This document shows positions 5,779-39,168 of a DNA stretch of 64,000 nucleotides, piece after piece (the stretch's first letter is position 1; every line of letters begins with the position of its first letter). This stretch comes from Escherichia coli (GTDB lineage: Bacteria > Pseudomonadota > Gammaproteobacteria > Enterobacterales > Enterobacteriaceae), in the NCBI RefSeq assembly GCF_024700885.2, contig NZ_CP117014.1. The stretch is one strand, 5' to 3'. Below the pieces are notes generated by a model that worked only from the letters and a program-made list of their open reading frames with translations, was not told where the DNA came from and made no database searches. The translations under genes and the position numbers were made by a program.

Positions 5779-6488
5779 CAATTGACTATCAGGTACTGCG
5801 TGAGGCGGCAGAAAAGGCAACACCAGACGAATGGGTCGCATTTATTTCGACGGATACTGGTACTTATGCGGTGCACACGCCCGGTGATGAACGATGTGAA
5901 GACGTTATCAAATGGACCGGCTTTGATGGACAGAAAAATGCAGAGAACAACGCTCGTTATGTTGCCGCGTTCAACCCAAAGGTTGCACTGGAGCTTCTTG
6001 GTGAAATTAAGCGCCTGGAGGACACAAATATTGATGCTATGTGTCGAATTGCAGAGCTTGAGACTAATCTCGCGGCGCTGGCGGCGGAGAATGAACTGGC
6101 TCGTAAGGCAGTTCAGGCATTCTGCGATGTTGTTGGCGACAACACCGAGGTTATCGCTGAGGAGGTTGGGCGAGATGGCGTTCTGGTTATTTTGGAGGCC
6201 ATGAAGGCAACAGGAAATATGCCAGCCACCGATGCTTTTCTGGCTGAAATTCGTGCGGAAGCACGCAACGAGGGAGTTAACTATACCGCCAGCCGTCTTG
6301 CTGCTGCGTTCAATCACGGATTTATCAATAAGTCTTTGCGTGAAGTTTTCGACGTTACACGCATGATTTTGTCAGCGAAAGAAGAGTTGGCTAATGAAGC
6401 GCATCCGATTGATGGCCTGTCTGGTGAATATGCGGAGAAATCCCTTGAAGAATGGGCGGAACAGATTCGCAAAGGAGCTGACAAGTGA
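5766..6488 (+). CDS. Ead/Ea22-like protein
   Basis: 240 aa; N-terminal YQVLREAAEKAT..W module shared with 7423; central ALAAENELA; C-terminal ATDAFLAEIRAEARNEG module shared with 2054. Confidence 0.55.
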   Translation: MARMTIDYQVLREAAEKATPDEWVAFISTDTGTYAVHTPGDERCEDVIKWTGFDGQKNAENNARYVAAFNPKVALELLGEIKRLEDTNIDAMCRIAELETNLAALAAENELARKAVQAFCDVVGDNTEVIAEEVGRDGVLVILEAMKATGNMPATDAFLAEIRAEARNEGVNYTASRLAAAFNHGFINKSLREVFDVTRMILSAKEELANEAHPIDGLSGEYAEKSLEEWAEQIRKGADK

Positions 6489-6895
6489 AGAAGATGATTT
6501 TTATCGCGGCATTGTTGGTGAATATCCAACAAGTGCATGCTTCAGCAGCTATTGTAGCCTCTACCGCCGCGACTACGGCTGCTGTAGCTGCTGCGAACTC
6601 TGCGAATATCGCAAACCAACAGGCACAGCGTGCTGCTAATGCATCAGCCAGCGTTCACTCAATCACCATTAAGAGCAGTAAGCAAAATCTGGGATTCATA
6701 ACGTGCGGCACGCGTTCTAATGAAGCTGTAGGTTCACTTGGATGTACGGTATATGGGGGTAGTGAGAATAGAGAAATTCCATGGAAAACGTGGCCCGGAT
6801 ACGTTCTTGGCTCGAAGCTCCCGGCCAGTTATGAAGTAAACGCCGTATCGTTTGATCACTATAACGGCGTGGCAACGGTCTATTTTGCATATTGA
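6485..6895 (+). CDS. small secreted protein
   Basis: 136 aa; signal-peptide-like MKKMIFIAALLVNIQQVHA followed by an Ala/Thr-rich stretch. Confidence 0.45.
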   Translation: MKKMIFIAALLVNIQQVHASAAIVASTAATTAAVAAANSANIANQQAQRAANASASVHSITIKSSKQNLGFITCGTRSNEAVGSLGCTVYGGSENREIPWKTWPGYVLGSKLPASYEVNAVSFDHYNGVATVYFAY

Positions 6896-6902
6896 GGCCC
6901 GC

Positions 6903-7436
6903 ATGAAATTCTCCAAATTTTCTGAGTTGGTGAATCGTATTTTGTTGAATCGTATTTTGTCCAACAACCACAGCCATCGTCGCGATATGGATGTAACGAT
7001 CGTTGTTCATTCGCCTGGCAGCATTGGTTCAACACCCTCAGTTGAGGTTCAGTCAATTCACGCTGGTTTTGATTGGGATTCCGGGAAAGTGCTGATTTTC
7101 CCAGCACAGCCACTGACCACTCTAACACCAGAACAGATTACTGATATTACTGATAGTGTGCGCAAAGGTCAGTCCTGGCACGCATATCAGGAATACAAGA
7201 AGCATAAAGAGCAGTTGGAAAAATTATCGATTGAACTTGATACCGCAAAACAGCGCATTGCAGAGCTGGAGAGCAATCGCGCGGCGCTGGCGGCGGAGCA
7301 TGGTATTCAGATTGCAATAAATGAACTGCTTGCTCTGGCCCCGCGTCTGGATAAACGAGCGGTGGATGCACTCTCTGTGGCTGTGGAGCACCTGTGTAAA
7401 CTGATTAAGAAGGAGGCAGTCAGTGAGCAAAATTAA
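6903..7436 (+). CDS. hypothetical coiled-coil protein
   Basis: Start moved to MKFSKF; contains ELESNRAALAAEHG, the same junction motif as the Ea22-like paralogs. Confidence 0.4.
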   Translation: MKFSKFSELVNRILLNRILSNNHSHRRDMDVTIVVHSPGSIGSTPSVEVQSIHAGFDWDSGKVLIFPAQPLTTLTPEQITDITDSVRKGQSWHAYQEYKKHKEQLEKLSIELDTAKQRIAELESNRAALAAEHGIQIAINELLALAPRLDKRAVDALSVAVEHLCKLIKKEAVSEQN

Positions 7437-8178
7437 TTACCAGGCACTGCGTGAGGCGGCAGAGAAAGCAACGTGGGGAGACTGGGACTCATATAAACCA
7501 CACCGTGGCGCACGTGGTTATAAGGTCCGACTAAGTGGTCAGGCCATTGCGCAACACGTTCTGAAAAACAACGCTGAATTTATTGCTGCCTTTAATCCAA
7601 AGGTTGCTTTGGCATTACTGGATGAACTGGAAAGAAACCAGCAATACATCAAACGCCGCGACCAGAAGAACGAGGATATTGCTCTTACGGTTGGGAAGCT
7701 GAGAGTTGAGCTTGAGGAAGTAAAACAACACGCTGAAGAATTATCCGAAACCAAGGCTGTTCGTAACCAATGGCGGCCAGATATTTGCCCAATAACCGGA
7801 CGTGCATTTTTCATGTGGATTGAGCATCCAACATTGGGAAATGTGCCGACATATGGTGGCCCATTAGATAGTTACACCATTCCAACAAAGGACGGTGACG
7901 GTGAGTTTTCATGTGAGCGTTACGATCATGATTTTGGCGGTTGGGTAGAAAGCGAATGTCTTGGGTTATATCTGATTGATGATAGAGAACAATGCAGGGT
8001 CTACGAACTGGAGGAGCGCGTTAAGGAACTGGATGCTCGGGAAATATCGCTCCCGGAACGTAGCAGCATGCTTCATCGAACAGATTTTCACGATGATTAC
8101 CAAACGGTAATGGCATACAAAGTTTCTGAAGTCATCGATGCAATCCGCGCTACTGGCATTCGCATCAAAGGAGAGTGA
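7423..8178 (+). CDS. Ead/Ea22-like protein (N-terminal module)
   Basis: 251 aa; INYQALREAAEKATWGDW..NAEFIAAFNPKVALALLDELE parallels the ORF at 5766. Confidence 0.55.
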   Translation: MSKINYQALREAAEKATWGDWDSYKPHRGARGYKVRLSGQAIAQHVLKNNAEFIAAFNPKVALALLDELERNQQYIKRRDQKNEDIALTVGKLRVELEEVKQHAEELSETKAVRNQWRPDICPITGRAFFMWIEHPTLGNVPTYGGPLDSYTIPTKDGDGEFSCERYDHDFGGWVESECLGLYLIDDREQCRVYELEERVKELDAREISLPERSSMLHRTDFHDDYQTVMAYKVSEVIDAIRATGIRIKGE

Positions 8179-22864: not shown

Positions 22865-22942
22865 TAATCCCCCGGGCAGGAAATGACCGAGGGGATGATA
22901 ATGAGAATGTTAAAACTGTATAGACTGGTAAAAAGATGAATG

Positions 22943-22956
22943 TATTAGAAAATTAA
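22943..22956 (+). promoter_or_regulatory. operator-like 14-mer, copy 7 (variant)
   Basis: TATTAGAAAATTAA, about 80 bp upstream of the lpa-position gene. Confidence 0.4.
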
Positions 22957-23940: not shown

Positions 23941-24162
23941 AACGTTTCCTTTTTTACACGCGCGACTATCCCCCGGAAGTACCGGTAGTGATGTCGTAAC
24001 TTCGTATTAATTAAGGGGTACAGCCTGAGCGGCTATATGATGAATTGAAAGGAGTTGTGGCGGTGGTGCCTCCACCTGCCAGGTTAGCCACTCCTGGCGA
24101 CGTCACTTATCAGAACGTAGTGAATGAAAATGGCTTCGTCACGAGCGCATAGCCGCAATTAC

Positions 24163-24210
24163 CACAACGGAAACGGCGCTCACGCTAATTAAACGCCTTT
24201 TCCTGTTGTG
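24163..24210. repeat. hairpin H1
   Basis: CACAACGGAAACGGCG / CGCCTTTTCCTGTTGTG, 15-nt loop, one mismatch and one bulged T. Confidence 0.6.
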
Positions 24211-24392
24211 CGCCGTGCTCTTCCGGCTGTCACACCGAATCGCCAGGATGGTGAATCCGCAGTCCGACGCTATGAACGGGGCTTGCACATTCCGGCTACC
24301 TGGTGTGCCCATGCAGTGTTAGTAAAAGGTACCTAACAGCTACACCAGACCGCTAACGACGCATGTGCCATACGCCGTGTTACAACCAAATG

Positions 24393-24468
24393 TGGTGGCC
24401 CCTACCGGACTTGAACCGGTGACCGTGCGATTATGAGTCGCCCGCTCTAACCACTGAGCTAAAGGGCC
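24393..24468 (-). tRNA. tRNA-Ile2/Met (anticodon CAT, ileX-like)
   Basis: Reverse complement GGCCCTTTAGCTCAGTGGTTAGAGC..GACTCATAATC..GGTTCAAGTCC..GGGGCCACCA folds as a cloverleaf and closely resembles E. coli ileX. Confidence 0.85.
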
Positions 24469-24477
24469 AGATTACTG

Positions 24478-24606
24478 TTAATTACGCTTACGCTTTTTGC
24501 CAGAACCGCGTAAGGCTTTTGCCGCTTGCTCTACCCCGTATGCAACCACCAGCAGAAACAATAATGTCCACTCCGGGTTTTTATCGGCAAACGCCCAAAA
24601 ATCCAT
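24478..24606 (-). CDS. possible 42-aa membrane peptide
   Basis: Hand translation MDFWAFADKNPEWTLLFLLVVAYGVEQAAKALRGSGKKRKRN; AGGTGG 9 nt upstream; below the ORF-track cutoff. Confidence 0.25.
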   Translation of the reverse strand: MDFWAFADKNPEWTLLFLLVVAYGVEQAAKALRGSGKKRKRN

Positions 24607-24785
24607 CACTTGCAGCCACCTTTTAAGACAAAACGCCATTGCTGTTAGGTTGCGGTGCCGGGCGCCTCCCGGTGACGTTAACCAGTTAACAATTAACGCC
24701 GGATCACTTATGGATTCTCGTTACGCCAGTAAAAAGACCACCTTTACTGTTTTAACTGTTCCGCGTGCGCTTAGCCGCATTCACC

Positions 24786-24895
24786 GCAATGGTAAGAGCA
24801 TTTGGCTGACTGGGCGGCGATGACGCCTGTACGCATTTGGTGATCCGGTTCTGCTTCCGGCATTCGCTTAATTAGCCAAATACCCTTAATGTTGC
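24786..24895. repeat. hairpin H2
   Basis: GCAATGGTAAGAGCATTTGGC / GCCAAATACCCTTAATGTTGC (21 positions, 16 Watson-Crick); ends 2 nt from the CCA end of tRNA-Ser. Confidence 0.5.
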
Positions 24896-24897
24896 AC

Positions 24898-24984
24898 TGG
24901 CGGAGAGTAATGGAATCGAACCATCATCGCTTGCGCAATGGGACGGTTTTCAAGACCGCTTGAGCACCATGCTCCCTACTCTCC
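24898..24984 (-). tRNA. tRNA-Ser (anticodon TGA)
   Basis: 87 nt; acceptor GGAGAGT/ACTCTCC, anticodon loop CTTGAAA, long variable arm (6 bp plus GCAA loop), T-loop TTCGATT, encoded CCA. Confidence 0.85.
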
Positions 24985-25114
24985 CGTTATTGTGGCGACC
25001 GGTGCTGATCTCCGGCTTGCGGTTATTTCAGACTCTCACGGGCGTTTAATTGCCCCGCCGAACAGCTCTTTTCCGCAATAGCTGCAATGTCTTTCGCGCA
25101 TCAGCCTGCGCATT

Positions 25115-25214
25115 CACCACAATGTTGAGAACACTGGTTGTCACGCTGCAACGCAACATTTATTCGTAGATTGGGATATGACCCCGTTACGCCAGTGTTC
25201 TCAACGTTGTAGTG
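25115..25214. repeat. hairpin H3
   Basis: CACCACAATGTTGAGAACACTGG / CCAGTGTTCTCAACGTTGTAGTG: 23 positions, 21 Watson-Crick, 1 G-T, 1 mismatch; 54-nt loop. Confidence 0.65.
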
Positions 25215-25350
25215 CCGGTTACGGTTCCGGCCAGACCTCTTCCTCAACGGGGTGTTCTCCATACGGACTACCGTTTATTGGTCGTTCCTGCGGTTTATGT
25301 TGTGAAGCCAGATGCTTATCTTCTGGTTGCTTCAAAGAGCTGCACTTCAT
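25215..25350 (-). pseudogene. decayed tRNA-Thr-like copy
   Basis: CCGGTTACGGTTCCGGCCAGACC aligns with the 3' third of the intact tRNA-Thr (GCCGGTTAACGGGATCGAACCGCTGACC); T-arm destroyed, no CCA; the 5' part is only weakly alignable. Confidence 0.4.
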
Positions 25351-25437
25351 CACAACGGTAAGAGCATTTATGGCTCGCATCGCGGGAAAAAGCCCACGGT
25401 AGAGAGTCGAACTCTACAAATGCTCTTACCTGTTGTG
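25351..25437 (-). ncRNA. hairpin H4: tRNA-like junction with a T-arm
   Basis: 19-bp basal stem CACAACGGTAAGAGCATTT / AAATGCTCTTACC(T)GTTGTG. On the minus strand it encloses GTAGAG-TTCGACT-CTCTAC (25399-25417, canonical T-loop) and CGTGGG-CTTTTT-CCCGCG. It starts 1 nt after the CCA of tRNA-Thr. Confidence 0.5.
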
Positions 25438-25438
25438 T

Positions 25439-25514
25439 TGGTGCCGGTTAACGGGATCGAACCGCTGACCATTCGCTTACAAAGCGACTGCTCTACCAAC
25501 TGAGCTAAACCGGC
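25439..25514 (-). tRNA. tRNA-Thr (anticodon TGT)
   Basis: 76 nt; acceptor GCCGGTT/AACCGGC, D-arm GCTCAGTTGGTAGAGC, anticodon loop TTTGTAA, T-loop TTCGATC, encoded CCA. Confidence 0.85.
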
Positions 25515-25518
25515 AATT

Positions 25519-25605
25519 TGGTGGGGAGTGATGGAGTCGAACCACCCGAGTCGCAATGACAGTAGATTTACAGTCTACCCCGCTACCCCTACGGACTAAC
25601 TCCCC
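25519..25605 (-). tRNA. tRNA-Tyr (anticodon GTA)
   Basis: 87 nt; acceptor GGGGAGT/ACTCCCC, anticodon arm GTAGA-CTGTAAA-TCTAC, long variable arm, T-loop TTCGACT, encoded CCA. Confidence 0.85.
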
Positions 25606-25610
25606 TAAAT

Positions 25611-25687
25611 TGGCGATGGTGGGTGGATTCGAACCACCTACCGAAAGCTTAGAAGGCTGCTGTTCTATCCTACTGAGCTACACCATC
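25611..25687 (-). tRNA. tRNA-Arg (anticodon TCT)
   Basis: 77 nt; acceptor GATGGTG/CACCATC, anticodon loop CTTCTAA, T-arm GGTGG-TTCGAAT-CCACC, encoded CCA; the anticodon stem has one mismatch. Confidence 0.8.
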
Positions 25688-25887
25688 ACTTGCCGGGTAC
25701 GTCTCCGGCGAGGGCTTCCACCTCCGTATGCTTTTCGGCGCACCGCGCCCTGGCTGCAATTCGGTAACAGGGGATGCACAACCCTGGCTTCCAGCGTGAT
25801 TAGCGCCTTCAGCATGACGGGATATACCCGTTACAAGAAGTTCTCCCAGGATGCCATTAAGCAATGGCTGTTACGCGGGAAGGACGC

Positions 25888-25964
25888 AACAGGTAAGGGC
25901 GCTGACCAGAAAGACCTGACCCTTCTCATTCATCTGGTTAATCACACCAGCGCCCTTGCCTGTT
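25888..25964. repeat. hairpin H5
   Basis: AACAGGTAAGGGCGCTG / CAGCGCCCTTGCC(T)GTT with inner stem ACCAGA/TCTGGT; same bulged T as H1 and H4. Confidence 0.6.
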
Positions 25965-26148
25965 ATGCCTCCCCGTTCCCTAATACACAGACGGGGACAC
26001 TCTGCGGTCGATTTTTTTGACGGGGGACGACTCATACCCCGTGGCGTCTGGCTTCTTAGGCCGCTACCATCATCAGATCATCGTTTGCATTTACTTTAAT
26101 GGTCAGTTTCTAAACCGCCGCAAAGTCGCTAACCATGACGAAAACCCT

Positions 26149-26172
26149 AAAAAAGCCCACCCGAAGATGGGC
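26149..26172 (-). terminator. rho-independent terminator (minus strand)
   Basis: Minus strand reads GCCCA-TCTTCGGG-TGGGC followed by TTTTTT. Confidence 0.55.
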
Positions 26173-26191
26173 AAATACGCTACATCTCACA

Positions 26192-26270
26192 CAAGAAAGA
26201 AGCCGACTGCCTGAGCTGGATTCACTTTCAAATGCCCGCTGAAAGGGATCACAAGTCGGCTTCTTTCTTG
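26192..26270. repeat. hairpin H6
   Basis: CAAGAAAGAAGCCGACT / AGTCGGCTTCTTTCTTG: 17-bp perfect stem, 45-nt loop with inner stem CTTTCA/TGAAAG. Confidence 0.7.
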
Positions 26271-26486
26271 ATGCGGCACTCTCTCCGCCCGTCACCGCTC
26301 TGTCTCGGTTGTCGCGTTTGCCACGCCAGCCGTAACGAGGTTTAAAGTCTTTACACGTTTCCATCACTCGACTGCCGTCTGTGGCTGTTCGTTGCAGCGG
26401 GGGTGCCTCCCCCTGGGGATATCCCCGGCCTTACCCCATTCTTTCAAGACACAATGCAAGGCCACATCCGCATAGGTGCATTACCG

Positions 26487-26551
26487 CAACATTAAGGAGA
26501 CTCAGGGCAAAAGGTAACCGCCACAAAAATCCCTATGCCTCCTTAATGTTG
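26487..26551. repeat. hairpin H7
   Basis: CAACATTAAGGAG / CTCCTTAATGTTG: 13-bp perfect stem. Confidence 0.65.
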
Positions 26552-26559
26552 AAGATGTG

Positions 26560-26614
26560 CATTGATGATTAGATGCAGCATGTACCGTTACTCTCTGCCG
26601 GACCATCATCAATG
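26560..26614. repeat. hairpin H8
   Basis: CATTGATGAT / ATCATCAATG: 10-bp perfect stem, 35-nt loop. Confidence 0.55.
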
Positions 26615-26750
26615 AACACCTTAAAAAGACCTTCCGTGGCTCAACATGTATTGTCGTTTACTCCGCAAAGTGCTCTCTCTGAAACCACTTTCCGCACTAA
26701 ACCTGCTGAACTTTGGCCTGCACGGTGCCAAAGCGTGCTCTTGCATTACT

Positions 26751-26764
26751 ATACATTTCTAACA
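26751..26764 (-). promoter_or_regulatory. operator-like 14-mer, copy 8
   Basis: Minus strand reads TGTTAGAAATGTAT and overlaps a TATAGT -10-like hexamer pointing into the non-coding island. Confidence 0.45.
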
Positions 26765-26906
26765 CTTTAATTTGTTAAATGCTGGTGGGCGAACAATAAC
26801 CAATAAGTGACTATCAAGCCCAGCAAGCGAAACGTGGGTACCGCCCACCAGCAAGGAAAATTCTATGTTAAGTTATCTTCACAATCAATACATTCGAATT
26901 GTGATT

Positions 26907-26920
26907 TTAGATTTCTAACA
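26907..26920 (-). promoter_or_regulatory. operator-like 14-mer, copy 9
   Basis: Minus strand reads TGTTAGAAATCTAA, followed by TAAAAT; directly after the stop of the 402-aa gene. Confidence 0.45.
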
Positions 26921-26922
26921 CA

Positions 26923-28131
26923 TTATTTCCCATAAAGATCTTCTACACCCCCATTCTTCTTATCCCATTCGTTCGCCCATACCCGGCAAGCGTCAATGAT
27001 TTCCTGACGACGATCTCCTTGCATGAACGGGATGCTTTCATGGAAACAGCTTGGAATGCAGGCCACACTGAATACAGTATCAAACTCCGTCTGCTTGATT
27101 GCCTCCAGCGTCTCCGGACGCATTTTTAATTCATCGATTGGCGCATCCTTAGAGTCCATAATCCGGCGATATAAGCGCGGAAAATCCGTCTCCAGATACG
27201 CCATAATTTTATCTGCGAGACATTCGTCTATGTCGGTATTCCAGTCCTTTTCGAAGCCCGGCAGGCGATAGTAAAGCGGCGTTCCCCATACCGATGGGAT
27301 CACATCCATCGTTAACAGGCGATTGGTTCTGATTTGTTGATGGTAATTAGCCGTCAGCAGTGCTTCGCCACGCTGCCCAGTTTCCGCAACCAGGCCGTGC
27401 GGATACTCATGGATGTAGGCAATGGCATCCCTTCCATCATACATAAGTGGAAATGTCTCTGGTCTTTGTCCCATGCCACAAGCACGGTTCAGATCGTGAC
27501 CAAGCTGTGAGCACTCTCGCTTTAATGTTTCGATAATGCTCTGCGCTGTAGCCAACTTTTTACGCAGTGTGACGCCTTCGCCTTGATAATCAATGCATTG
27601 CTGATTGAGCTTGGTTAAACGCTCTTTTAGTTCCCGGCGCTCTCTTTTCAGCGTGCGGTTATCCTTCTCCGCAACATCCAGCCGCTTTGTCAGGCTTGGC
27701 GGATAGTCTTTTTTGTAACGGTTCAAATCGGCTTCGGCAGATTTACGCAGTGTATTTGCCTGTTCAAGACGCGCTTCCAGATTGCCGATCTCATTACGCA
27801 TATTCGCGGCAAATTGATTAACTGCATCACCCAGGCTTTCAACTGTCGCTGATACGCCTGTGACTTGTGAAAAACGGATCAAGCCATCATTAACTGCTTG
27901 TTGGTATTCCTCAAACTGATCCACCAGCTTATTGTAATCAACTGCCCCATCATCAAGCAGCTTGTTGATTTCCGCCACCAGGTTATCTGTAGTGGCAATG
28001 ACACTCTCGTGCAGTCGCTTTGACAGGTCATCACCCGGATTCCGTTTCTGTATAAGAGCGATTTGTGTGCGCAGCGTTTCAATTGCTGTCGAGATAATTT
28101 CCAGATTAGAAGTATCAGTGTGTTGACTCAT
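26923..28131 (-). CDS. coiled-coil protein of unknown function
   Basis: 402 aa; N-terminal ~215 aa heptad-rich, globular C-terminal half; operator copy 10 lies 25 bp upstream. Confidence 0.55.
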   Translation of the reverse strand: MSQHTDTSNLEIISTAIETLRTQIALIQKRNPGDDLSKRLHESVIATTDNLVAEINKLLDDGAVDYNKLVDQFEEYQQAVNDGLIRFSQVTGVSATVESLGDAVNQFAANMRNEIGNLEARLEQANTLRKSAEADLNRYKKDYPPSLTKRLDVAEKDNRTLKRERRELKERLTKLNQQCIDYQGEGVTLRKKLATAQSIIETLKRECSQLGHDLNRACGMGQRPETFPLMYDGRDAIAYIHEYPHGLVAETGQRGEALLTANYHQQIRTNRLLTMDVIPSVWGTPLYYRLPGFEKDWNTDIDECLADKIMAYLETDFPRLYRRIMDSKDAPIDELKMRPETLEAIKQTEFDTVFSVACIPSCFHESIPFMQGDRRQEIIDACRVWANEWDKKNGGVEDLYGK

Positions 28132-28155
28132 TGCTATTCCCGTTACTTTGTTAAA

Positions 28156-28169
28156 TTATTTTTCTAACA
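28156..28169 (-). promoter_or_regulatory. operator-like 14-mer, copy 10
   Basis: Minus strand reads TGTTAGAAAAATAA. Confidence 0.5.
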
Positions 28170-28212
28170 TATTTTATTAGTTTGATGACAGTATCGAAAG
28201 ATGCAATAAACA

Positions 28213-28238
28213 AAAAACCCGCTAATTGGCGGGTTTTT
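28213..28238 (-). terminator. stem-loop terminator
   Basis: AAAAACCCGC-taattg-GCGGGTTTTT, symmetric A/T runs. Confidence 0.6.
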
Positions 28239-28244
28239 ATGCAA

Positions 28245-28559
28245 TTACTGTGTTGCAGCCTGATAAATAAGATACGCGATAAATACAGGTACGATGGCCC
28301 ATTGCAGCAATGAAAGTAGCCTCATTACTGTTATTGGGGTAACTCCATCCACGTATTGTTTCTCTGACATTTTCCCGAACCAACTAACCGACAACAGTGC
28401 CGAGTTTTCCCCCAATTCCAGCTCTCTGAGAGCTTCACGGATTAACGGCGCTGTCACAGCCTTAACCGGTGTGCTCAACGTGATACTCCGCGTCCTCCCC
28501 GCATCGTCAGCGAACGCCAGACTCACATAATATTTTTTGCTCAATGTACAAACTCCCAA
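28245..28559 (-). CDS. hypothetical protein with C-terminal TM segment
   Basis: 104-aa ORF; LLSLLQWAIVPVFIAYLIY near the C-terminus; start uncertain. Confidence 0.35.
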   Translation of the reverse strand: MGVCTLSKKYYVSLAFADDAGRTRSITLSTPVKAVTAPLIREALRELELGENSALLSVSWFGKMSEKQYVDGVTPITVMRLLSLLQWAIVPVFIAYLIYQAATQ

Positions 28560-28755: not shown

Positions 28756-29250
28756 TTAATCAAGACAAACATACTCCGTGATAGCTTTTATGGCTTCAGC
28801 GGCACTGCGCGCCTCAAAGCAGTAGTAACCGGCTTCTGTGAGGCGAGTCATCCAGACGAGTTGTTCGGGAGTCAGGCGATTTCTCCCATGTTTCATCTCA
28901 ATGCGCATTCCGTGGTATCCCCCACAAGCAAGGTCTATAGAAAGATCGGGATATCCCTTCTTTTGGCCCTCTGCCACCATTTTTATTGCCGTCCTTATGC
29001 CTCGCAGGCCACCGTTTGGAGTGGCGTGAGTATGCTCATACACATAACGCATATTGCGATACATCCAGTCCAGGACGCGAACCTGCTCGTAATGCTCATG
29101 GTTCCTTTTGATTAGATCTGGGTTTTTCTCCAGTTCTCTAAGAGCTGCGGCATGTGGGGATGTTTCAGAATATTCACTGCGACGCCTTCTCTTTCGCGCT
29201 ATTTTTCTAACACACCCATTGATAGTAAATATGCGAAATAATAACAACAA
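28756..29250 (-). CDS. VRR-NUC domain nuclease
   Basis: YPDLSIDLACGGYHGMRIEMKHG (D...ExK) followed by LTPEQ..W; start uncertain because operator copy 11 lies inside the annotated 5' end. Confidence 0.6.
   Translation of the reverse strand: MLLLFRIFTINGCVRKIARKRRRRSEYSETSPHAAALRELEKNPDLIKRNHEHYEQVRVLDWMYRNMRYVYEHTHATPNGGLRGIRTAIKMVAEGQKKGYPDLSIDLACGGYHGMRIEMKHGRNRLTPEQLVWMTRLTEAGYYCFEARSAAEAIKAITEYVCLD
29199..29212 (-). promoter_or_regulatory. operator-like 14-mer, copy 11
   Basis: Minus strand reads TGTTAGAAAAATAG. Confidence 0.4.
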
Positions 29251-29386
29251 CGTTAGATTTGTAAAACAAGAGAGATACTACTCAAGGATGGTCTATATGC
29301 AACAGGTCGGATTTGCTTTTAGAGTAAAGAGTGACCTTAATCAACAAGGAGGGTAAATCGCATGGCATTTACCCAACCTGTTATTT

Positions 29387-38759: not shown

Positions 38760-38990
38760 ACGGCCTCACTAACAGGTTTAACAACCTGCCACCCGCTGTC
38801 AAACAGGTGGCAGGACGTGACAGGGTTGACAGACTGGCGTTAGTGAAACCAGCAGGCCGAAGCCTCCCCATCACGCCCCACCATAATTCGGGCGTAACGC
38901 GGTTTACGGACACAAAAATACCGCAATATCGGAAATCTGCGGTTGTCCGCACTAACATTCAGGCTGTCAAACCCGGTCGCAGAATTTGCT
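38760..38990 (-). ncRNA. candidate c4-like antisense RNA region
   Basis: Non-coding leader between operator copy 12 and the icd-position ORF. The minus strand carries GTTTGACAGC twice (38972-38963, 38804-38795) flanking the complementary CTGTCAAC (38832-38825), plus hairpin CCTGCCACC/GGTGGCAGG. Confidence 0.25.
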
Positions 38991-39100
38991 ACGACGGCAT
39001 GAATATAAGCCTGAAAACATGGAAGATCAACTAAAAATTTCAGCAATGGATGACTTCAGTCGATGATGCAGATCATACATTCCGTTTTAGAAACAGCAAA

Positions 39101-39114
39101 TTAATTTTCTAACA
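39101..39114 (-). promoter_or_regulatory. operator-like 14-mer, copy 12
   Basis: Minus strand reads TGTTAGAAAATTAA; faces the weak half TTTTAGAAACAGCA. Confidence 0.5.
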
Positions 39115-39168
39115 TAAATAATCGGCCGAGCATTTTCCGATCATTGGGATGTTTTGTAGACACACAGG

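Follow-up and report, generated by a model that had tools for sequence, protein, structure and literature searches.

A conserved, hairpin-rich non-coding stretch before the tRNA genes of D6-like phage-plasmids, a possible structured leader outside Rfam

What is the role of a conserved, hairpin-rich stretch that separates a head gene from a set of tRNA genes in a phage-plasmid and bears no annotation? The question arises in a 64,000-nt stretch of Escherichia coli DNA (contig NZ_CP117014.1; hereafter the window), in which an interval on the minus strand (26149-26764), lying between a pmgS-like head gene upstream (26923-28131) and the tRNA genes, had been singled out in an earlier note as a discrete, operator-controlled and protein-free unit of about 590 nt that might encode a large ornate RNA analogous to GOLLD and ROOL. 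The interval is conserved, has no conserved long open reading frame (ORF), covaries in the manner of an RNA, carries promoter, operator and terminator motifs and is syntenic with phage P1. The favoured reading, which we hold to be about evenly poised between right and wrong, is that of an untranslated structured 5' leader of a repressor-controlled early tRNA operon, the D6 counterpart of the P1 ban/tRNA leader. It would be a lineage-specific, expanded leader of a known kind of operon, and a categorically new free-standing RNA is less likely.

Judged by its sequence, the window is a D6-like phage-plasmid, with 99% identity to Escherichia phage D6 over 25700-27000. The leader is 100% identical in several E. 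coli plasmids of ~90-97 kb, the 97,453-bp plasmid NZ_CP066033.1 of E. coli FDAARGOS_1059 among them, and occurs in 120 PLSDB plasmids from Escherichia (96), Salmonella (16), Shigella (7) and Pantoea (1), 118 of which are non-mobilizable. Among 5426 complete E. coli genomes it was found in 98, at 101 places that are all plasmid-borne and none chromosomal, and none of the D6-like plasmids examined lacks it. When 26176-26860 was compared with 50,697 phage records by distant blastn, D6 was the sole match across the leader, two scans of species-representative genomes found the leader in none (six matches in the second were chance matches in GC-rich genomes), and a second IMG/VR motif scan added only 98.5%-identical copies. 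The homolog set comprised 40 unique sequences, including plasmid, IMG/VR and metagenome matches, with 75-100% identity to the window across module 1 (~26745-26391), the part of the leader present in all D6-like elements. The stretch thus appears to be restricted to D6-like phage-plasmids. No feature is annotated at the leader by PGAP or GenBank in any plasmid, phage or E. coli record listed, and the region is not discussed in a P1vir transcriptome preprint. An Rfam cmscan gave no family at the interval, its matches being tRNAs, C4 and c4-a1b1 elsewhere and sub-threshold noise here. The leader sequence is unannotated and outside Rfam, and the finding is new.

By analogy, the closest system in both function and position is the leader of the P1 ban operon. 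The P1 slot contains, in order, the bivalent C1 operator Oban (Oban/Op72), the promoters P1ban and P2ban, a 'dicF-like region', trnA-trnT, tciABC, trnI and ban. Homology to P1 begins at window position 26175, exactly at the terminator, and continues at ~91% identity on to the tRNAs. This rho-independent terminator, found where it had been predicted (26172-26149, minus strand), consists of GCCCATC-TTCG-GGTGGGC followed by TTTTTT, giving a 7-bp stem with five G-C pairs and a UUCG loop. It is present in all homologs and in P1, with G-C to G.U and U.G to C-G changes among them, and the same terminator closes the annotated 'dicF-like region' of P1. The two leaders occupy equivalent positions with respect to the tRNA genes, are untranslated and have a promoter with a repressor operator; they also share an identical terminator, a 91%-identical 460-nt non-coding domain behind it and co-oriented tRNAs. 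They differ in that the window leader body (26176-26745) has no P1 counterpart, while the P1 leader is only ~180 nt long and its ~120-nt 'dicF-like' body is missing from the window. The upstream gene also differs (dmt in P1, pmgS-like in the window), as does the operator, the D6 sequence being unlike the one given in the P1 annotation.

The P1 record assigns the control of ban, 2.6 kb downstream, to the operator. Because this operator lies upstream of the same terminator, and because a scan of 24000-28500 found no promoter-like site between the terminator and the tRNAs, the terminator would act as a partial stop inside a single operon. A free-standing, self-contained unit is not demonstrated by this comparison, the interval occupying the P1 leader slot and the control of ban crossing the same terminator. 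As for a discrete unit of ~590 nt, the operator and the terminator that would delimit it are present, but conserved non-coding sequence runs for 460 nt past the terminator.

A related arrangement is that of DicF in the dicB operon of the Qin prophage, a repressor-controlled operon in which an untranslated stretch is processed into a terminator-ended RNA. The homologous slot of P1 is annotated as dicF-like; the P1 dicF-like body is deleted in the window, in which only its terminator is left, and DicF was absent from the Rfam cmscan matches to 25600-26950, reported up to E = 10.

The operator and promoter motifs fit a repressor-controlled operon. The operator motif GTGTTAGAAATNTA occurs exactly at 26752-26765 and 26908-26921 (both minus strand), and with up to two mismatches it has 13 matches in the window against 1.6 expected, a number reached in none of 100 shuffles. 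With this enrichment, two exact copies and tRNAs downstream, the proposal of operator control beside a tRNA array is supported. Operator copy 1 (GTGTTAGAAATCTA, 26908-26921, minus strand) is directly 3' of the pmgS-like stop codon, ~20 nt upstream of the -35 hexamer, and is conserved across all aligned lineages. Operator copy 2, the one originally noticed and an exact match to the motif, is likewise conserved across all lineages and overlaps the hexamer TATAGT at 26748-26753 (the two together spanning 26748-26765, minus strand). TATAGT had been proposed as the promoter of the unit; it is present at 26753-26748, but it is swapped for non-promoter sequence in the L006, L008 and L003 lineages, and the conserved promoter lies ~105 nt further upstream. 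This sigma-70-like promoter (26860-26888, minus strand) consists of a -35 hexamer TTGATT (26888-26883), a 17-nt spacer and a -10 hexamer TAGAAT (26865-26860). Both hexamers are kept in 10 of 10 aligned D6-like lineages, with a spacer that varies, and the site was the sole promoter-like one to emerge from the scan. The two operator copies bracket it, 156 bp apart centre to centre.

The predicted transcription start lies near 26853, and the first predicted transcribed base is also the first base of a 5'-terminal stem-loop (26780-26853, minus strand) with a 12-bp perfect stem, 26853-26842 / 26791-26780 (TGCTGGTGGGCG / CGCCCACCAGCA). The fold of 26740-26853 has -39 kcal/mol (z -3.9), and the stem carries a compensatory change from GGGCG/CGCCC to GGGGA/TCCCC in the L003 lineage, as judged by eye. 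Given the conserved promoter further upstream, the RNA to the terminator is probably ~705 nt long, with a hairpin at its 5' end.

The favoured leader reading can be set out as a sequence of events. Transcription of the minus strand would begin at the sigma-70 promoter (26888-26860), and in the D6 subgroup perhaps also at TATAGT; with two C1-type operator copies flanking the promoter, the RNA would be made only after derepression. It would consist of the 12-bp 5' stem-loop followed by about eight conserved hairpins and the UUCG terminator shared with P1, at which a fraction of transcripts would end as an RNA of ~0.6-0.7 kb. The remainder would continue past it into a further conserved, structured domain, the five tRNAs and downstream genes. 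The hairpins would most likely stabilise the RNA, act as processing sites for RNase III or RNase E, and prevent Rho from cutting short a transcript whose untranslated 5' part (26853 to 24393) is ~2.4 kb long. Of these events, transcription as such, termination of a fraction of the RNA, its processing and what the hairpins do are inferred.

Is the conserved feature an RNA, and on which strand? The 593-nt RNA folds with -230.6 kcal/mol, compared with -194 +/- 8 kcal/mol for 100 dinucleotide-preserving shuffles (z = -4.5). RNAalifold, applied to 34 full-length unique sequences, returned 148 consensus pairs in which 97.9% of cells are paired, against 36-46% with the partners slid by 1-3 columns, and neither the observed covariation score nor the count of double-sided changes was reached in any of 500 shuffles. 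The L004 and L005 rows are partly misaligned in this alignment, and their spurious counts were discounted. True compensatory pairs number at least five across the homologs, so that structural covariation, the lack of which in homologs the earlier note had named as refuting its idea, is found in the D6-like alignment. The minus strand has a consensus energy of -168.8 and the plus strand one of -138.0; for the copy in the window, the minimum free energies are -233.6 and -196.0, respectively. Helices that are neutral as to strand contain 15 G.U columns against 5 A.C columns, favouring the transcribed strand, and 3 of the 5 A.C columns are supplied by a clade with an inversion, described below. 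Separate alifold runs for each strand gave 22 G.U columns for minus-only pairs against 17 for plus-only pairs, a comparison that is circular.

The three stems reported at the outset (H6 with 17 of 17 bp, H7 with a 13-bp core and H8 with a 10-bp core) were all found, as were the two GC hairpins at their reported places. Downstream of the 5' stem-loop, the first is a hairpin at 26659-26699 (minus strand; RNAalifold helix 2) with a 10-pair consensus and the core CGGAAAGTG / CACTTTGCG, in which 100% of cells are paired and G-C to G.U changes occur; by eye, the position that forms a central G/G mismatch in the window has T-A in L006 and G-C in L033. The H8 hairpin (26557-26617, minus strand) has a 12-pair outer stem and a 6-pair inner helix, with its 10-bp core within 26605-26625 / 26549-26569, and undergoes one-sided changes that preserve pairing (U-A to U.G, G.U to A-U, C-G to U.G). 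The H7 hairpin (26484-26554, minus strand) has 21 pairs, with the 13-bp core within 26531-26551 / 26487-26507, and three compensatory pairs (A-U/G-C; U-A/U.G/C-G; G-C/A-U). It is followed by a conserved core (26391-26500, minus strand) formed by the helices 26479-26464 and 26463-26427 and the two GC hairpins, GGGGATATCCCC at 26426-26415 and GGGGGAGGCACCCCC at 26413-26399 (both minus strand). The H6 hairpin (26192-26270, minus strand), which combines a 17-bp perfect stem (26254-26270 / 26192-26208) with an inner helix, is present in all lineages as three mutually compensated versions, the third of them in L004 and L005, and its compensatory pairs involve A-U to U-A and G-C to A-U changes. H6 was also considered as a terminator and rejected, the U-rich run lying within the stem and not after it. 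The consensus as a whole is mostly a series of hairpins with one 6-bp long-range helix (26640-26635 / 26325-26320) that shows only wobble changes, and so looks unlike an ornate fold; no multi-junction or pseudoknot evidence was found in the leader consensus, pseudoknots not having been searched for.

Conservation is concentrated in the core. Lineage representatives are 97-98% identical over 26500-26411, falling to 90% by 26381, and the near-invariant core spans ~110 nt; its flanks, the end of the pmgS-like gene included, have 70-83% identity. The architecture, as read from the alignments, is a mosaic string of hairpins, with modules gained and lost between lineages. Module 2 (26265-26390, minus strand) is an insertion/deletion unit that carries the start of a decaying ORF (26110-26367) and is absent from the Shigella dysenteriae and Escherichia fergusonii plasmids (L004, L005). 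Part of it (26296-26366, minus strand) resembles a piece of Klebsiella phage Kp4865-1 (OK490417 16129-16200, L056 1201-1272) over 72 nt at 78% identity (E 3e-5); the match crosses the stop codon of an ORF of that unrelated phage, and MMETCKDFKPR aligns with MMQTAKVVKTR. The P1-type 'dicF-like' body (~120 nt) is present in L003, L008, L009, L004 and L005 and deleted in the window and D6. A third kind of rearrangement affects H7, the 39-nt loop between the 13-bp arms (window 26500-26538) being inverted in L010 (1750-1814), L021 and L044, the last with an extra 12-nt deletion. An invertible switch was considered for H7 and rejected, since the three carriers share private substitutions and therefore look like one clade and a single event. 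The inversion looks like a single template-switch or recombination event, and such events could create 'compensatory' changes without selection.

Could the stretch then have no RNA-level function at all, and be a spacer between two operons, made of DNA palindromes and remnants of genes and prone to recombination, with hairpins kept or homogenised by template switching at the DNA level? The mosaic modules, the decaying ORF, the resemblance of module 2 to the Klebsiella phage piece and the H7 loop inversion between 13-bp repeats, a DNA-level event, would all be expected of such a spacer, and the alifold comparison of 22 with 17 G.U columns does not separate the strands. This explanation nevertheless appears improbable in view of a core that is 97-98% identical in lineages whose flanks have diverged to 70-83%, of the 15 to 5 ratio of G.U to A.C columns for the transcribed strand, of folding energies that favour the minus strand, and of the retention of the element in every D6-like plasmid examined.

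Some of the same features bear on a second alternative, a free-standing large structured non-coding RNA that ends at the terminator, acts in trans and has its positional analogues in GOLLD and ROOL or in the stable RNAs encoded in the tRNA cluster of T4. Phages and prophages encode GOLLD and ROOL, often close to tRNA islands (PMC12286853), and the window RNA resembles them in being phage-borne, non-coding and several hundred nucleotides long, with a tRNA array 460 nt downstream. A discrete promoter and operator, a strong terminator, a size of ~590-705 nt, the z of -4.5 together with covariation, the near-invariant ~110-nt core and the lack of an Rfam family all speak for an RNA of this kind. 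It is an unlikely explanation all the same: an RNA of this type fits poorly with the absence of module 2 from L004 and L005 and the presence of a ~120-nt P1-type module in others, with a hairpin string that has a single weak long-range helix, with a distribution limited to a single plasmid lineage, or with conserved non-coding sequence that continues past the terminator. The window RNA further differs from GOLLD and ROOL in its narrow distribution, its gain and loss of modules and its different host phylum, and cmscan found no match to either, over the whole window at gathering thresholds and over 25600-26950 to E = 10. Of the proposed analogy, the phage location beside tRNAs therefore stands, but no tie beyond position and no covariance-model match was found.

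Does the leader encode a protein? All ORFs of at least 30 amino acids on either strand of 26110-26770 are broken in close homologs, with the exception of a 31-aa ORF at 26431-26526. The ORF at 26110-26367 (minus strand), remarked on at the outset as compositionally odd, is present and is interrupted in close homologs, either at codon 5 by TGA or at codon 35 by a stop, and a Pfam search of the ORFs of the interval found nothing. The description of the interval as protein-free holds in that there is no conserved long ORF and no family match, but not for the 31-aa ORF, which is preceded by a Shine-Dalgarno sequence and kept in 33 of the 40 homologs. This candidate small ORF (MWRLPFALSLLNVAVMHLCGCGLALCLERMG, minus strand) is hydrophobic and runs from a TTG start at 26526, 12 nt after the Shine-Dalgarno sequence, to a stop at 26431. 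The perfect Shine-Dalgarno sequence, TAAGGAGG (26545-26538), lies in the 5' arm of H7, where it pairs with CTCCTTAA in the 3' arm.

These features raise a third alternative, in which the RNA would be the structured mRNA of a 31-aa hydrophobic membrane peptide, its Shine-Dalgarno sequence locked in the 13-bp stem of H7; the peptide would be comparable to those of type I toxin mRNAs or to small phage membrane or cell-division-inhibitor peptides, and the remaining RNA would time the opening of the ribosome-binding site. In support of translation, TAAGGAGG is invariant in all aligned homologs, TTG follows AAGGAG at 12 nt in nine homologs and at 14 nt in nine others and lies within the frame as an internal codon in four L004-type sequences, and a by-eye count from the alignments gave five synonymous and three conservative substitutions in the ORF. 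The ORF is open with a nearby start in 33 of the 40 unique homologs, including the L003 type, whose divergent loop differs in length by 3 nt and yet keeps the N-terminus hydrophobic and in frame, with a TTG at a distance of 8 nt from the Shine-Dalgarno sequence. Against translation, L005 has a frameshift, L008 has TTA in place of TTG, the three sequences of the inversion clade have likewise lost the start or frame, and the C-terminus is extended by a G-run frameshift in ~11 sequences. Each 'synonymous' change is equally pair-preserving in the RNA helices, and the nucleotide invariance extends beyond the stop codon of the peptide. The ORF has no Pfam family, its only NCBIfam match is irrelevant (E = 0.17), and among 5.8 billion protein clusters only one partial weak match was found. 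On balance, a peptide-encoding mRNA is a doubtful reading of the locus.

The type I toxin mRNAs, hok, tisB and zorO among them, are long structured RNAs in which the Shine-Dalgarno sequence of a short hydrophobic ORF is sequestered. The window likewise has a short hydrophobic ORF with its Shine-Dalgarno sequence inside a 13-bp stem, but it differs in the absence of a toxin family match and in the repeated loss of the ORF in close relatives. No antisense promoter for a peptide mRNA was found either, the scan of 24000-28500 having yielded no plus-strand promoter-like site, a weak test based on a consensus scan only. It is for want of an antisense partner and of a known toxin family that the resemblance breaks down.

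Several observations weigh against the leader reading itself. The small ORF with its Shine-Dalgarno sequence is unaccounted for by a leader model. The covariation comes mostly from long inverted repeats, and because perhaps only ~6-9 independent, partly recombinant lineages contribute to it, the support for a minus-strand RNA, which both the energies and the G.U/A.C tests favour, appears real but modest. Template switching at the DNA level can also keep such repeats matched, and the H7 loop inversion shows that template switching or recombination acts on these palindromes. The structure was predicted from the very sequences on which it was assessed, which makes several of the structural controls partly circular. 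The terminator looks strong, and for this reason read-through is inferred solely from the P1 annotation. Finally, the near-invariance of the core (26500-26411) suggests a sequence-specific role beyond that of a leader that stabilises a transcript or directs its processing.

Beyond the terminator lies a second conserved structured non-coding domain (25691-26148, minus strand), which extends for 460 nt to the first tRNA and has no conserved ORFs. It is better conserved than the flagged leader, with 95-100% identity among D6-like representatives over 26140-25931 and ~91% identity to P1, and it folds with -180.7 kcal/mol (z -4.1) and four compensatory pairs. Nothing is annotated at the equivalent position (~68893-69347) of the P1 record (NC_005856), and this domain may be the more important RNA of the two. 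A broader proposal, which we consider quite unlikely, is that the whole protein-free 1.2-kb stretch from the pmgS-like gene to the tRNAs encodes a large structured phage RNA of a new class, associated with the tRNA islands of enterobacterial P1- and D6-type phage-plasmids and acting in trans at induction, composed of a D6-specific leader with its ~110-nt core and the 460-nt domain shared with P1. If it were true, tRNA handling, ribosome interaction or counter-defence would be conceivable roles, and a functional counterpart of GOLLD and ROOL would be at hand in a tractable host.

The downstream domain also contains a frame at 26100-26056 (minus strand), TAAAGTAAAT GCA AAC GAT GAT CTG ATG ATG GTA GCG GCC TAA, reading A-N-D-D-L-M-M-V-A-A-stop, which has no start codon and resembles the tag frame of tmRNA (SsrA). 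It is invariant in P1 and nearly all aligned D6-like plasmids, with one change in L033. A tmRNA reading of the domain was rejected: ARAGORN finds none, and the Rfam tmRNA models reach 15.6-23.8 bits where the gathering scores are 47-50. Near the tag-like frame, tmRNA_permuted (E 0.016) and alpha_tmRNA (E 0.028) are far below the gathering score, and the similarity of this region to E. coli ssrA is confined to 8-nt and 11-nt words.

The tRNA array comprises five co-oriented genes, for Arg(TCT), Tyr, Thr, Ser and Met (24393-25687, minus strand; ARAGORN and Rfam). The tRNAs have the orientation of the leader in the window, D6, P1 and the S. dysenteriae plasmid (L004), and their sets vary, D6 having Asn, Thr, Ser and Met, and P1 and the S. 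dysenteriae plasmid having Asn, Thr and Met. From these comparisons the array would appear to be variable cargo behind a constant leader. In D6 (MF356679 ~6084-7850, L001 4313-6079), ARAGORN places the tRNAs on the strand of the flanking genes and adds a fourth, tRNA-Met (CAT); the D6 GenBank record has three tRNAs on the opposite strand. The tRNA strand in that record is probably wrong and the fourth tRNA missing from it.

Further copies of the operator motif occur at 22942-22955 (plus strand) before the lpa-like gene, at 28157-28170, 29200-29213 and 29254-29267 (minus strand) upstream of the pmgS-like operon, and at 39102-39115, adjoining the C4 RNA locus. At this locus Rfam identifies the C4 antisense RNA (38803-38888, 68.8 bits) and its a1/b1 target element (55.2 bits), the region 38803-39008 (minus strand) being the P1-type immunity region immI. 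P1 likewise has C1 operators before the lpa gene and beside the C4 locus. The copies before the lpa-like gene and upstream of the pmgS-like operon suggest that a single repressor governs the late activator and adjacent operons as well.

P1-family phage-plasmids occur commonly in E. coli, Shigella and Salmonella and lend themselves to manipulation, yet more than 1 kb of conserved, structured and repressor-controlled non-coding sequence before their tRNAs is featureless in every record examined. The near-invariant core, the hidden small ORF and the downstream domain shared with P1 are the parts most worth experiment. If the leader only stabilises and meters a tRNA precursor, it would exemplify how a phage can protect an untranslated transcript of great length. 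Should the near-invariant core or the domain shared with P1 act in trans, or should the 31-aa peptide be made, a new regulator would have been found in a classic model system, and with it a tractable system in which to learn why phages place large RNAs beside tRNA islands.

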